From NCBI GenBank assembly GCA_049513715.1, contig JBEKVV010000002.1, positions 224,001 through 288,000 on the forward strand: 64,000 bases of DNA, read 5' to 3'. The notes beneath the pieces were generated by a model. It did not search any database, was not told where the DNA came from, and saw nothing but the letters and a program-made list of their open reading frames with translations. The stretch comes from Candidatus Bathyarchaeia archaeon (GTDB lineage Archaea; Thermoproteota; Bathyarchaeia; 40CM-2-53-6). The position numbers and the translations under genes were made by a program. Below, piece after piece: positions 2,260 to 54,986 of the stretch (positions are counted from its first letter, which is position 1; each line of letters begins with the position of its first letter).

Positions 2260-2800
2260 TCCTTAACTCCACCAATGCTTGCTGACATTTTCCGCATAGA
2301 CTAGAACCTTTCATGTCCGTGTCTTCCAAAGATTCAGACAAATGCATTACGCACAACTCATCTTGGCAGTGGTTTAGCCCTAGCGTGTGCCCTACCTCAT
2401 GGACAGCTTCCTTCACCATGCGTTCTGCATACAGACTATGCGTCTCCGAGCCTGTTGCCTTCAGTCTGTGAGTTGAAATCACACCCACGCGTCCGGCCAG
2501 TCTAGCTTCACCGAAAACGAAGTTCATCCCTGGGGCATAGATGTCATAATCAGTAATTGCCAATAAGCGACATACTTGGGTCGATTGGATATGTTTCTCA
2601 AGCAGTGCTAGAATTCTTGTGGAGTGATATTGAATTCTCCTTGAGTCGAAGGCTTCAGCGATATCCAAGAATGGCGGAAGTGTCTCCACTTCAAACCAGG
2701 GATACTTGGACTGTAGGGGATCCATGAGGGCATCTAGAGAATGGTCGGAGCTGTCACCTACTTGCAGTAGGCCCAGTGACTCAGACGTCGTAAGTTTCAC
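2252..2800 (-). CDS. amzA: Archaemetzincin Zn metalloprotease
   Basis: HEVGHTLGLNHC...CVM motif, C-terminal LCGKC, NFVFGEA. Confidence 0.9.
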   Translation of the reverse strand: MKLTTSESLGLLQVGDSSDHSLDALMDPLQSKYPWFEVETLPPFLDIAEAFDSRRIQYHSTRILALLEKHIQSTQVCRLLAITDYDIYAPGMNFVFGEARLAGRVGVISTHRLKATGSETHSLYAERMVKEAVHEVGHTLGLNHCQDELCVMHLSESLEDTDMKGSSLCGKCQQALVELRNE

Positions 2801-4040
2801 CAGGCCGAGGAGTCGTTGTCTTCAACCCAAGCTCATTCGTCGCCCAGTCGGCCAGGAGCTTGCAGTTTGCTTCCTCGCCGTGGATTACGAACACGTGTGT
2901 TGTTTTGTCTAGCTCCTTCAGGGTCTCGTGGAGTTGGGTTTTTCCGCCGTGTGAGGAGAAATCGTATTTTTCGACTCTGGCTTTGACTTTCTGTGCTTTG
3001 CCGTGCAGTATGAAATGCCCTTCGTCCAGAAGGATTCTGCCTGGCGATCCTGGGACTTGGTAGCTGACCAAGAATATGCCATTGCCTTCATTGAGTGCTA
3101 TGTTTTCCATGTAGAAGACGGATGCTCCCCCCTTGAGCATTCCCGCTGGCGATACTATCACTCCTGCGGTGCGAGCTGCTCGCCTTCGGCCATGCCAGTT
3201 AGTTATTTGCTCGGCCTCCCGCATGGCCCTCTCGAACTGTTCGCCATTCCTCAGCGAGTTCGGATACTCCTCAAGCATTCTGATCGCATCCAACGCCATA
3301 CCGTCGACGAAGACAGGGTGAGCGAAGTTGTTGTCGGCGAGCATGCAAATGATTTCTTGTGAACGCCCTACACCGAAGGCTGGGACAAGCACAGTGCCTC
3401 CACGCTCGACCACCTCATTGCAGGCAAGAACGAAATTGTGCTCCGATGTCGCTCTATCAGGGTGGTCTTCTGCCGCATATGTGCTCTCGATGACTATTGC
3501 ATCCAGATTCTTGTAGGCCCTATCGGCGCCCGTAACTAGGTGTGTGGGAACGAGGTTGAAGTCGCCCGTATAGAGAGCACGTTTTCCATCAGACTCGACG
3601 ATTACCTGGGCGCTGCCCGGTATGTGGCCGGCGTTCACCAATGTGACTTTCATGTCGCCGACCTTGAACTCCGAATGGTAATCGGTCGGGACGACGTGGC
3701 TGAGCATGCTTTCGAGGTCGATGTATTCGAATGGCAGGTAGTAACCACTCAGTTTGATCATGTCGCGGATGAGGACTTTGGTAAGTGCGAAGGTGGGTTC
3801 AACACCGTAGAGGGGCAGCTTTGATGTGTGAACATAGAAGAGTGGAATCAGGCCGCTGTGGTCGAGGTGTGCATGTGTTAGCACAACCGCGTTCAAGTCT
3901 CTTGGTGAGATGTGAACGGGAAAACCTACGTCGTGATTTATCATCACGCCATAATCCATGAGGATTTGGGTGCGCTGAGTCTTTGCAGCGATGCCGGACC
4001 TACCGACCTCTTGACATGCTCCAAGGAACCGTAATTGCAT
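2781..4040 (-). CDS. MBL-fold beta-CASP ribonuclease (aCPSF2-like)
   Basis: LGACQEVGRS, THAHLDHSG, AGHIPGS, YTGD, ESTY, FSSH, HGE; no KH domains. Confidence 0.9.
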   Translation of the reverse strand: MQLRFLGACQEVGRSGIAAKTQRTQILMDYGVMINHDVGFPVHISPRDLNAVVLTHAHLDHSGLIPLFYVHTSKLPLYGVEPTFALTKVLIRDMIKLSGYYLPFEYIDLESMLSHVVPTDYHSEFKVGDMKVTLVNAGHIPGSAQVIVESDGKRALYTGDFNLVPTHLVTGADRAYKNLDAIVIESTYAAEDHPDRATSEHNFVLACNEVVERGGTVLVPAFGVGRSQEIICMLADNNFAHPVFVDGMALDAIRMLEEYPNSLRNGEQFERAMREAEQITNWHGRRRAARTAGVIVSPAGMLKGGASVFYMENIALNEGNGIFLVSYQVPGSPGRILLDEGHFILHGKAQKVKARVEKYDFSSHGGKTQLHETLKELDKTTHVFVIHGEEANCKLLADWATNELGLKTTTPRPGETYDV

Positions 4041-5088: not shown

Positions 5089-6717
5089 ATGTCCTATCTC
5101 ACTGGTCAACCTATTCTCATTTTGAAGGAAGGAGCGTCTCGAAACAGAGGCCGAGACGCGCAACATAGTAACATCACCGCTGCAATCATCGTATCTGAAG
5201 TCGTCAAAAGTACTTTGGGCCCACGAGGGATGGATAAGATGCTCGTGGACACTTTAGGCGACGTGACAGTTACTAACGATGGTGCCACAGTTCTCGACGA
5301 AATTGACGTTCAAAACCCCGCTGCCAAGATGATGGTTGAAGTCGCTAAGACTCAGGATGATGAGGTCGGCGATGGAACCACGACCGCGGTAATACTCGCT
5401 GGAGGTTTGCTCAAACGAGCACAGGACCTGTTGGACGACGATGTCCATCCAACAACTATCGTGGCGGGCTACAAGAAAGCAGCAGACAAAGCGGTTCAAG
5501 TTCTCGACTCGCTGTCCGAACCGATCAAAGTTGATGATAAGGTCGGCCTCAAAAAGGTCGCCATGACTGCGATGCACAGCAAAGGGCTCGGGGGAGCTCG
5601 CGAACACTTCGCCGATATTGCCCTCGAAGCGGTTCAACTGGTTAAGGAGAAGCGCGGAGATTCATGGTATGCGGATATCGACAACATTCAACTGGTCAAG
5701 AAAGAGGGCAAGAGCCTTCTCGACACGGAACTGGTGAAGGGCATCATCGTCGACAAAGAAGTCGTACATTCAGGAATGCCGAAGCAAATCAAGAACGCCA
5801 AGATCGCACTGCTTGACGCTGCCCTTGAAATCGAGAAGACTGAGATTTCGGCTGAGATTCGAATTAACGACCCAACACAGATGAAGGCCTTCTTGGATGA
5901 GGAAACTCATATGATGAAGGATATGGTGGACAAGATCAAAGCCTCTGGAGCCAACGTTGTGCTCTGCCAGAAGGGTATTGACGACACCACACAACACTAC
6001 CTATCCAAAGAGGGCATTCTAGGCGTTCGGAGAATCAAGAAATCAGACATGGAAAAGTTGGGGAGGGCGACTGGCGGCCGAATAATCACAAACCTCGACG
6101 ACCTCAAAGCCCCTGACCTTGGAAAGGCCGCGCTAGTTGAGGAACGAAAAATCGGTGACGACAAAATGGTTTTCATTGAAGGCTGCAAAGACCCGAGGGC
6201 CGTTAGCATATTGATCAGGGCTGGGCTCGAACGTTTGGTGGATGAAGCTGAAAGGGCGTTGAAGGATGCGATTTCAGTCTTGATCGATGTTGTGCAGAAA
6301 CCCAAAGTGGTCACTGGTGCTGGCGCAATTGAGGCAGAGCTTTCGAAGAAGCTCAGGGACTACGCTGCTAAGGTTGGCGGCCGCGAACAGCTGGCCATAG
6401 AGGCTTTTGCCGATACGCTTGAGATGATTCCCAAAACGCTCGCTGAGAACGCAGGCCTCGACCCAATCGACATAATGGTGGCCCTCCGCTCAGCACACGA
6501 CACGAAAACCGGTGTCACATTTGGCGTGGACGTGCTGAAGGGTGGGGTCAAGGACATGAAGAAGCAAGGCGTCGTCGAACCAGTTCGAGTCAAGGAGCAG
6601 GCAATCAAATCTGCAGCCGAAGCGGCATCGATGATTCTGAGGATTGACGACGTGATCGCTGCAGCGAAATCGGCACCCACACCGCCTCCTAGAGGCGGCG
6701 AAATGCCAGAATACTAA
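5089..6717 (+). CDS. ths: Thermosome (group II chaperonin) subunit
   Basis: [30 protein letters not shown]. Confidence 0.97.
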
Positions 6718-6719
6718 AC

Positions 6720-6753
6720 CCCCTTTCCACTCTTCCTTCTTCTATTCCTTTCC
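6720..6753 (+). terminator. Pyrimidine-rich tract, possible archaeal terminator
   Basis: C/T-rich run immediately after the thermosome stop. Confidence 0.35.
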
Positions 6754-6767
6754 GCGTTTGCACACGG

Positions 6768-6775
6768 TTAAAATA
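6768..6775 (+). promoter_or_regulatory. Putative TATA box for tRNA-Glu
   Basis: TTAAAATA, implying a transcription start near 6795-6800. Confidence 0.5.
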
Positions 6776-6816
6776 GCGTGTGCTCTCGATAGTCGGATTG
6801 CTCCGGGCAACTGTGG

Positions 6817-6967
6817 GCTCCGGTAGAAGCGTTCTGCTACCGAATATAGCCCGGTCAAGGCGATTAGTCGCCGAGAGTATGCTGGCCTCTCGAGCATGAC
6901 GGGGAGAGTCAGCGACGCGGGTTCAAAAGCGAGTGCTCAACCGCTGAAAATCCCGCCCGGAGCACCA
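6817..6967 (+). tRNA. tRNA-Glu: tRNA-Glu(CTC) with four BHB-type introns (6827-6844, 6858-6875, 6893-6906, 6928-6950); CCA encoded
   Basis: Removing the four inserts gives GCTCCGG TA GTAT AGCCCGGTCAA GTAT G CTGGC CT CTC GA GTCAG CGAC GCGGG TTCAAAT CCCGC CCGGAGC A CCA, a complete cloverleaf; each insert has a 4-bp central helix with 3-nt bulges. Confidence 0.9.
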
Positions 6968-7057
6968 AACCTCAAACGAATTTTGGGGCCGTGCGCCGAT
7001 TTCTTGGACCCCATAGGGTGGGGAGGGTTAGTTTTTTGCCCACCAAGCAATAATGGC

Positions 7058-8770
7058 TCATCCCATGCCTAAGCGTCGATTGATGTAGGCTTCGATGATT
7101 TGTCGAAGGGTCCCCAGTGCTATCGCGCCGTTACCCAGCAGCACGTCGTGGAATTCTCGAATGTCAAAGTGGTTGCCTAGCCGTTGTTTTGCTTCTTCGC
7201 GTAGGCGGAGGATTTCAAGTTGCCCTGTCTTGTATGCGACCGCTTGACCGGGCCATGTGATGTACCGGTCTACTTCGTTCACGATATTGTTCTCCGCGAG
7301 GGCTGTGTTCTGAATCATGAAGTCGATTGCCTGTCGCCGGGTCCATTTGTTCGCATGCATGCCCGTGTCGACTACGAGTCGGCATGCTCGCCATGCGTCA
7401 TAGGATAAAACACCGATTCGGTCCAGTTCGCTGGAGTAGAGACCCATCTCATCCGCTAGCCTCTCAGTGTACAATCCCCAACCCTCAATGAAAGCGGTGA
7501 CGCCACTGTACTTTCGGAACGCTGGGAGGTTTTCCAGTTCCTGTGCGATGGCGAGTTGTAAGTGATGGCCGGGAATTGATTCATGGTATGCAAGCACTTC
7601 CGCCTCATAGAGAGGTCTGGTTTCGGGCGCAGACGTGTTAATGTAGTACCGCCCTGGCCGAGAACCGTCGGCAGCCGGTTGACGATAATAGGCTATTGTG
7701 GAATGCTTCTCCTCATGTTCCTCCATCCTTACGACTTCGCAGTCTGCCTTCGGAAGCCGTCCAAACCAATTCGGGATTGCAGCCTTCGCCCGCGCCAGCG
7801 CAGCCTCTGCCTTCGCGGCAACTTCAGCCCGCGTCTTGAAGTACAGTGATTGGTCCGTTCGGAGGCGCTGCAAGATCTGTTTCCGGTCTCGGATTCCGAA
7901 TACTTTCTCTCCGAGCGCTTCCATCTCATGGTTGATTCGGGCAACTTCGCGGAGGCCTGTGTCGTGGACCTCATCCGGGGAGAGGTTGAGTGATGTGTGG
8001 ACGCGGATAAGTTGACGGTAACTTTCAACGCCACCCGGAACGTAGACAATCCCTGGAAGTTGTTGCGGGCGGGATCGTGGTAGGATCTCAGATTCGAGGA
8101 ATGCGAGGTACCGCAGGAACGCCGGACGTACAAATTCGCGGGCAGCACTCGTGAGGGCATCCCTAAACTCAAGTCGTTCCGTTTCCGTCCAATCATCGTG
8201 AGGGACGGTGAGTGGACGCAAGAGGGCCCACTCCTGCTCCGATTTATCTTTCAACTCCCGAATTTCGTCAATGACTTTCTCGACACATACCTGGATGGCT
8301 ACCTTGTTGGCGGCTTGGCCGCGGCGGAGATTTGCGATGTGGTGATCAAGATATTGGCCCATCCTCTGCCAGCGTTTCACCATCGCGCGACTTTCAACGG
8401 GGATGCGCACGGGTTGGTATGACTCCAAGTTCAAGAACTCAACCTGCGGACCGCTAAGCGGGTCCACGGTCCATTCCTCAAGGTGGCACCGCATATCATC
8501 AAGCAGTGCTTCAACGTCAACGAGAAGCGCAGCCAGCGTCAGCTGGTCTTTGGCGGAAAGACTCTTTTCAGGAATCTCATGGGCCCGCTGGAAGATGGAT
8601 GCGTATTGTCCCTCCTTCTGTGTGAGCGCTTGCGGAGTGATCTGTGGTAGCTGGTCGTCATATCGTCTATCCCCCAGTGCCGTTGCGTAAAGCGGTTCAT
8701 TGATCATACGAATTTGCCAGTACTCGGCGGCAAGAGTTGCCAATTGCTTCGAAGCTGCGGTCTCAGGCAA
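7058..8770 (-). CDS. DUF885-family protein (putative metallopeptidase)
   Basis: YHESIPGHHLQ, FIEGWGLY, RLVVDTGMH, EVDRYITWPGQA. Confidence 0.9.
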   Translation of the reverse strand: MPETAASKQLATLAAEYWQIRMINEPLYATALGDRRYDDQLPQITPQALTQKEGQYASIFQRAHEIPEKSLSAKDQLTLAALLVDVEALLDDMRCHLEEWTVDPLSGPQVEFLNLESYQPVRIPVESRAMVKRWQRMGQYLDHHIANLRRGQAANKVAIQVCVEKVIDEIRELKDKSEQEWALLRPLTVPHDDWTETERLEFRDALTSAAREFVRPAFLRYLAFLESEILPRSRPQQLPGIVYVPGGVESYRQLIRVHTSLNLSPDEVHDTGLREVARINHEMEALGEKVFGIRDRKQILQRLRTDQSLYFKTRAEVAAKAEAALARAKAAIPNWFGRLPKADCEVVRMEEHEEKHSTIAYYRQPAADGSRPGRYYINTSAPETRPLYEAEVLAYHESIPGHHLQLAIAQELENLPAFRKYSGVTAFIEGWGLYTERLADEMGLYSSELDRIGVLSYDAWRACRLVVDTGMHANKWTRRQAIDFMIQNTALAENNIVNEVDRYITWPGQAVAYKTGQLEILRLREEAKQRLGNHFDIREFHDVLLGNGAIALGTLRQIIEAYINRRLGMG

Positions 8771-9765: not shown

Positions 9766-9873
9766 GGGCCCGTAGCTCAGCTAGGTTAGAGCGACAGAAA
9801 ACCAAAGGTCGAAGCTCATAAGAAGAACGGAGAAACCTGCTGGTCGAGGGTTCGAATCCCTCCGGGCCCACCA
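9766..9873 (+). tRNA. tRNA-Ile2: tRNA(CAT), most likely tRNA-Ile2, with two introns (30/31: 9798-9813; 37/38: 9821-9834)
   Basis: Acceptor GGGCCCG/CGGGCCC-A-CCA (Ile-type), GCTC/GAGC D-stem, CT CAT AA loop after splicing, GAGGG-TTCGAAT-CCCTC T-arm; CGAC/GTCG BHB helix for intron 1. Confidence 0.85.
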
Positions 9874-54841: not shown

Positions 54842-54986
54842 GGGCCGGTAGTTCAGCTTGGTTAGAAGGCGCTTGCCTGGCCTGAACGTTGCCCTTACAC
54901 GGCAAAGGTCGCCGGTTCGAATCCGGTCGAGTCGCAAAATGGACGAGTCGGCGACAAAACCGGCGAAAGTCCGGTCCGGCCCACCA
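54842..54986 (+). tRNA. tRNA-Val: tRNA-Val(TAC) with two BHB introns (22/23: 54866-54884; 59/60: 54922-54969)
   Basis: Spliced product GGGCCGG TA GTTC AGCTTGGTTA GAAC G TTGCC CT TAC AC GGCAA AGGTC GCCGG TTCGAAT CCGGT CCGGCCC A CCA; central helices GGTT/GGCC and TTCG/CGAA. Confidence 0.9.

Follow-up and report, generated by a model that had tools for sequence, protein, structure and literature searches.

The tRNA-Glu(CTC) gene of the 64,000-nt archaeal DNA stretch analysed here (the window) is almost certainly spliced from five exons, and a seven-nucleotide copy of its acceptor 5′ strand stands in the leader just upstream. We favor a combined explanation, at a probability of roughly 70%, in which EndA and RtcB would splice the five exons and the leader copy would serve as a placeholder strand for the splicing of intron 1. 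The leader copy lies outside the coordinates of the original prediction, which had described the four introns. It is the more unusual feature and matters more than the intron count.

Structure of the tRNA-Glu(CTC) gene

The original prediction placed inserts of 18, 18, 14, and 23 nt at 10/11, in the D-loop, at 37/38, and at 59/60. This layout is confirmed, and relatives exist that lack each insert precisely. Taking out the four inserts leaves exons of 10, 13, 17, 21, and 17 nt. Running ARAGORN on the spliced sequence, we obtained a 78-nt tRNA-Glu(ctc) with a clean cloverleaf, the acceptor stem of which is identical to that of the Glu(TTC) gene in the same genome. ARAGORN still called a tRNA gene when any single one of introns 1-3 was retained, and it called none of the 11 combinations retaining two or more inserts. 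An unguided beam search combining a tRNA profile with BHB-scored jumps recovered the four inserts, with intron 3 in the 38/39 register, at a score of 85.6. In comparison, the intronless Arg(CCG) gene of the same genome scored 86.2 in this search and non-tRNA candidates at most 56. Removal of the inserts gives a complete tRNA-Glu, as foreseen.

Each of the four introns has four of four central pairs and one or two flanking helices. The central helices read exactly as originally proposed (CGGT/ACCG for intron 1; the others in Table 1), and that of intron 1 is built from acceptor positions 5-7 and U8. Intron 3 has an alternative 38/39 register (6894-6907; TCTC/GGGA) that leaves the spliced product unchanged; the 37/38 register retains the anticodon stem as the outer helix. 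We handled intron 3 in the 38/39 register throughout, except in the anchored ortholog parse, which uses 37/38. By their predicted junctions, the four inserts are typical archaeal BHB introns, and they are most likely removed by EndA and the exons rejoined by RtcB. A split or permuted tRNA gene is ruled out, the five exons being colinear within 151 nt.

Table 1. Features of the tRNA-Glu(CTC) locus, in window coordinates
Feature	Position	Strand	Details
TATA-like box TTAAAATA, likely promoter element	6768..6775	+	sequence motif
Leader copy GCTCCGG of the acceptor 5′ strand	6800..6806	+	exact repeat of 6817-6823
Variable spacer	6807..6816	+	copy-to-G1 distance 10-18 nt in 32 Glu genes
tRNA-Glu(CTC) gene	6817-6967	+	151 nt, CCA encoded
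Exon 1, positions 1-10	6817..6826	+	beam parse, ARAGORN product
Intron 1 at 10/11, 18 nt, HBh′ type	6827..6844	+	4 Watson-Crick pairs, inner helix 4
Exon 2, positions 11-20b	6845..6857	+	beam parse, ARAGORN product
Intron 2 at 20b/21 (D-loop), 18 nt, HBh′ type	6858..6875	+	CGGT/GCCG, 3 Watson-Crick + 1 GU
Exon 3, positions 21-37	6876..6892	+	anticodon CTC at 6889-6891
Intron 3 at 37/38, 14 nt, hBH type	6893..6906	+	CTCT/GGGG, 2 Watson-Crick + 2 GU
Exon 4, positions 38-59	6907..6927	+	sequence, ARAGORN product
Intron 4 at 59/60 (T-loop), 23 nt, full hBHBh′ type	6928..6950	+	TTCA/TGAA, 4 Watson-Crick, inner 3, outer 5
Exon 5, positions 60-76, discriminator A, encoded CCA	6951..6967	+	sequence, ARAGORN product

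The expectation that standard annotation would overlook the gene was borne out, as both ARAGORN and Rfam gave no match to its unspliced form. ARAGORN with a relaxed threshold returned 1,739 calls, mostly false, which we set aside. Glu(CTC) is represented by a single gene among the 44 tRNA genes located in the genome. By the original prediction, an intronless Glu(CTC) gene elsewhere, together with a lack of mature product, would have told against it; the located genes include none, and a genome search for an unspliced Glu(CTC) anticodon arm found none.

Reading the locus as a pseudogene or as the product of misassembly is barely credible. Among 24 sequencing runs no RNA run was listed as holding the sequence, and the genome carries 8.8% contamination by a CheckM-type estimate, but the exons are invariant and the intron loops variable in the genus and in another family. 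This is also the only Glu(CTC) gene among those located, and region 6700-7100 is unbroken and without difference in four DNA assemblies (possibly the source of the window's DNA). All 20 of the sequencing runs holding the sequence are peat or wetland metagenomes. The four DNA contig sets show no joints, which, like the lack of RNA runs among the listed holders, has no bearing on expression.

An ORF at 5089-6717 (+) precedes the gene, and its end is also found upstream in several orthologs; from its translation we take it to be thermosome-like. Another nearby ORF, at 2781-4040 (-), is presumably a beta-CASP-like nuclease, again judging from the translation.

Conservation of the four introns

We searched 22 same-genus genomes, 19 of which yielded the locus among the best 30 matches. 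The 20 same-genus loci, including the window's own, comprise 13 with four introns, five with three, one with two, and one cut by Ns. A tRNA-Glu gene from another family likewise carries four introns. Every insert is cleanly missing in some relative: intron 1 in L020, L021, and L023-L026; intron 2 in L022, L030, and L031; intron 3 in L022; and intron 4 in L016-L019. These clean absences fix the intron boundaries independently of the BHB motif.

Checking the central helices in the parsed orthologs, we find four of four pairs for intron 1 in 11/11 genes (0/44 in slid registers), for intron 2 in 18/18 (0/72), and for intron 3, in the 37/38 register, in 19/20 (8/80). Intron 4 pairs fully in 20/20 genes (0/80 in slid registers), with three orthologs outside the anchored parse pairing 3/4; in all, 7 of 28 distinct genes fell outside the anchoring pattern. 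Across nine aligned orthologs, 98% of cells pair, compared with 35-48% when the partners are slid. Two-sided changes in this alignment are confined to the inner intron helices, that of intron 4 included.

Intron number in the genome and in other lineages

Four introns in one tRNA gene is no record. The original prediction had described multi-intron tRNA genes, mainly from Thermoproteales, as having up to three introns and suggested that four may exceed the described range. The first part agrees with the reviews PMC8450103 and PMC4033280, which, in the portions available, give three introns per tRNA gene as the maximum. The second part fails against the Asgard families, in which, by the available part of a preprint (bioRxiv 10.64898/2026.10.13.758758), there are 2.20 intervening sequences for each tRNA gene and a single gene can have as many as five.

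The novelty of the count is also lost within the genome itself. Among the 44 tRNA genes located (one of them, C4:128581, without an anticodon call), 43 have introns, with about 105 introns altogether, or about 2.4 per gene; about eight genes have four introns and tRNA-Trp(CCA) has five. We tallied the introns manually from the parses, and in several genes the tally may err by one. His(GTG) and Leu(CAA) had no match among the pattern matches listed for the genome. The original prediction itself allowed that four-intron tRNAs already catalogued in numbers would remove its novelty, and the five-intron Asgard genes together with the four- and five-intron genes found here do so.

The multi-intron tRNA genes of Thermoproteales are a close parallel. 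As far as the available parts of the two reviews go, they share short, non-canonical introns with BHB, HBh′, or hBH junctions and a two-subunit EndA with a Crenarchaea-specific loop, and Pyrobaculum calidifontis has 71 introns in 46 tRNA genes (PMC8450103, PMC4033280). They differ in having at most three introns per gene, compared with up to five here, and a leader copy is absent from the available review text on them. The Asgard tRNA genes are similar in load: the preprint, as far as available, describes more than 90% of them as interrupted and many as missed by annotators. However, they belong to another lineage, and the main text of the preprint has no match to 'Bathy' or 'leader'.

A leader copy of the acceptor 5′ strand

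The leader copy is invariant in all nine aligned orthologs, and the spacer between it and the gene varies. The base preceding G1 is G in 31 of the 32 Glu genes that carry intron 1. The TATA-like motif match starts 50 nt before G1 and 33 nt before the leader copy. In the copy-less tRNA genes of the genome, the motif lies 31-38 nt before G1 in the 25 of 38 with a match. Since the box stands as far before the copy as it usually does before G1 elsewhere, the leader copy is likely transcribed. Among the six copy-bearing genes of the genome, the TATA spacing suits the copy, not G1, in three, and the motif was unmatched in the other three. In the window, a 7-bp inverted repeat (6760-6783) encloses the box in its loop; most of the orthologs do not have this inverted repeat intact.

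Association of the leader copy with early introns

Within the genome, all six genes interrupted at 10/11 or earlier have a leader copy in front of them, compared with 0/38 of the others. The six genes (Glu-CTC, Trp, Asn, Leu-CAG, Cys, and Gly-CCC) have six different acceptor sequences, and each is copied. We then compared orthologs, and as these genomes are related, Fisher values calculated across them are overstated. The copy is present in 32/32 Glu genes with the 10/11 intron, compared with 3/60 without it (110 loci examined, nine unparsed dropped, 92 distinct). Two same-genus Glu genes, L020 and L021, lack intron 1 yet have the copy; L021 was dropped from the count owing to Ns and is a further exception. 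All 18 intron-bearing Trp genes have a copy that could pair at least six of seven bases, and 3 of 11 intron-less Trp genes match at 6/7 (29 of 30 loci parsed). All 27 Asn genes parsed, from 30 loci, have both copy and intron, in a set that contains no intron-less control.

The substitutions in the copy fit a pairing strand. At copy positions 1-6, 16 of 16 are C-to-T changes that face a G in the 3′ strand, which is wobble-compatible, and none is G-to-A; the genomes being related, these stand for a minimum of four kinds of event rather than 16 separate ones. All ten pair-breaking changes fall at the terminal position 7. In Trp genes, T5 occurs in the copy in 10/18 genes, compared with 0/18 in the inner strand, where the search pattern permitted T5.

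A neutral origin of the repeat, as a scar left by the duplication behind intron 1, is very improbable. The copy does accompany the intron and persists in some intron-less genes (L020, L021, and Trp L180 and L186). However, it lies 10-27 nt upstream behind a freely varying spacer and does not flank the intron, it is retained across families and six tRNA types, and a neutral scar does not fit the asymmetry of C-to-T without G-to-A.

The repeat may also be read the other way round, with the upstream repeat serving as the genuine 5′ exon and a fifth intron, in the acceptor stem, made up of the 17 nt that separate the two repeats and best placed in register 5/6. The length (10-18 nt) and variable middle of this stretch resemble those of the other introns, the TATA spacing places the first repeat at the usual G1 site, and register 5/6 yields three of four central pairs in 32/32 Glu genes. 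The same register, however, gives three pairs in no Trp gene and in three Asn genes. A fifth BHB intron was rejected as none of eight registers reaches four pairs here or, in general, across the 77 orthologous genes (4/4 in at most 1 of 32 Glu, 4 of 18 Trp, and 1 of 27 Asn genes). Such an intron would also not call for a full 7-nt duplication, and the substitutions hit the outer copy and spare the inner one. The Gly(CCC) gene of the genome bears on both sides: it shows a real 3/4 intron, yet it has a separate upstream copy in addition. On balance, the reading is quite unlikely. A single large intron running from the first repeat through intron 1 was likewise rejected, the first repeat not being followed by T8-A9-G10.

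Several of the loci deserve a description of their own. The five-intron tRNA-Trp(CCA) gene (G000 C1:372218-372443 (-), L154) has introns at 10/11, 28/29, 37/38 (59 nt), 45/46, and 59/60 in a hand-corrected parse, a leader copy 25 nt upstream, and similar orthologs across the order. The 3/4 intron of tRNA-Gly(CCC) (G000 C1:573334-573481 (-), L159) has 4/4 Watson-Crick pairs and uses leader bases; its leader copy, with wobble, is 27 nt upstream. The tRNA-Asp(GTC) gene (G000 C4:144551-144656 (+), L158) has an intron at 68/69. In 22/22 same-genus tRNA-Asp loci listed, out of 28 examined and with no intron-less control among them, CCA is directly succeeded by a repeat of the T-stem 3′ strand, once with a wobble change. 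This trailer copy is the mirror image of the leader copy.

Predicted folding of the precursor

The central helix of an intron at or before 10/11 draws on bases of the acceptor strand and therefore competes with the 7-bp acceptor stem. Using ViennaRNA, we find the intron-1 helix at 0.97 in the presence of the leader and at 0.001-0.008 in its absence. In the predicted precursor fold, the partners of leader bases 6800-6808 are positions 64-72, of which 65 and 64 can be reached by 6807-6808, and intron 1 is paired with positions 5-8. The last G of the spacer can pair with D-loop C17 in this fold.

The effect recurs in the orthologs. Of the 32 Glu genes, 26 have an intron-1 helix above 0.5 when the leader is included, five when A7 stands in for the copy, and none when the leader is left out; the corresponding numbers for the 18 Trp genes are 13, nine, and none. 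When the seven bases of the copy were shuffled, the median over 59 shuffles was still 0.55 and one reached the native value, so the GC-rich composition supplies part of the effect. The A7 replacement and the leader-less controls were used instead of this weak shuffled-leader control.

Other predictions do not follow the proposed course. In Asn, the BHB helix is predicted in 0 of 27 genes, with or without the leader. Release of the copy after removal of intron 1 is predicted in 0 of 77 genes, the leader-paired form being preferred in all 77, and for the fully spliced tRNA-Glu(CTC) the model favors that form by 7.3 kcal/mol. As the model misfolds even the mature tRNA alone, by 6.2 kcal/mol, copy release counts as unexplained, not refuted. 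For introns 2 and 4 of tRNA-Glu(CTC), no intermediate shows a predicted helix above 0.05, and the folds therefore give no guide to the order of splicing.

These data bear on a different pairing role, in which the copy would bind the 3′ strand to tether the 10-nt exon 1 or to delay RNase P or CCA processing until the precursor is spliced. The outer stem exceeds 0.5 in 72/77 genes, including 27/27 Asn genes without a predicted BHB helix. In the genus the copy reaches T-stem positions 65-64, which would distort the RNase P substrate, and the wobble bias suits any pairing role. We consider the tether or delay unlikely, as the large effect of the leader on folding in Glu and Trp genes favors the freeing of positions 5-8. 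The leader is covalently linked to exon 1 in either reading, however, so tether and placeholder roles are compatible. We think that the leader copy probably acts as a placeholder strand for the splicing of intron 1.

Processing machinery and proposed order of events

The genome encodes RtcB, RNase P RNA, and two EndA paralogs. The catalytic EndA subunit aligns best with the solved chain 3p1z_B, which we take to be the Aeropyrum enzyme, in agreement with the H133A chain 3ajv_B. Its K39, Y123, H131, R155, K162, and W183 correspond to the crenarchaeal K44, Y125, H133, R157, K164, and W183. The subunit thereby retains all the residues named in the available part of PMC3241643 as the catalytic triad, the recognition residues, and the loop lysine of EndA. 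The second paralog is without the YxxGPGxDH motif. Two-subunit EndA cleaves relaxed, non-canonical junctions, according to the portions available of PMC4033280 and PMC4090602.

In the proposed order of events, transcription would start at or just before the leader copy, and the copy would pair with the tRNA 3′ strand as a placeholder, freeing the real 5′ strand. The freed acceptor strand could form the splice helix of intron 1 (10/11). EndA would cleave this intron in the leader-paired state and RtcB would ligate the exons. The real 5′ strand would then displace the copy, perhaps aided by tertiary folding, and RNase P would remove the leader irreversibly at G1.

Other tRNA loci

The window holds two further interrupted tRNA genes. 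A tRNA-Val(TAC) gene at 54842-54986 (+) has a D-arm intron and a 48-nt 59/60 intron, possibly with a nested BHB; ARAGORN called it at 54860-54935, with wrong bounds. A tRNA with a CAT anticodon at 9766-9873 (+), likely Ile2, has introns at 30/31 and 37/38, and the intron mode of ARAGORN labels it Ser. Elsewhere in the genome, a long GC-rich, hairpin-like leader lies between a TATA-like box and tRNA-Leu(TAG) (G000 C1:124547-124614 (+), L162). Three near-identical tRNA 3′-end fragments with long shared flanks (G000 C5:206495-206617, C1:892281-892337, and C4:150335-150401) are possibly attachment-site scars of mobile elements.

Discussion

With its four introns, the gene adds a likely Bathyarchaeia lineage to those with extremely fragmented tRNA genes, and the count shows why annotators undercount the tRNAs of this lineage. 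The nearest likeness to the leader copy is found in split and permuted tRNA genes, in which, by the available part of PMC4033280, sequence outside the mature tRNA also pairs in the precursor for EndA processing. There, however, the flanks pair mutually and form the BHB that is cut, unlike the leader copy, which repeats one strand of an exon and binds in cis to the 3′ strand of the mature tRNA, with no BHB in the leader. If its predicted role holds, the leader copy would be a cis-acting folding aid; no description of a leader copy of the acceptor strand was found in the accessible literature, where subscription journals are largely outside coverage.

We lean towards a wider reading, a strand-swap chaperone, in which archaeal pre-tRNAs would carry a spare copy wherever a splice helix borrows a strand of a tRNA stem. 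It would cover both the leader, for the acceptor 5′ strand, and the tRNA-Asp trailer, for the T-stem 3′ strand. If it is true, introns can colonize otherwise forbidden sites, and the order of splicing, strand swap, and RNase P cleavage would be enforced. The placeholder, if true, would explain how an intron survives beside the acceptor stem, which bears on why tRNA introns persist.
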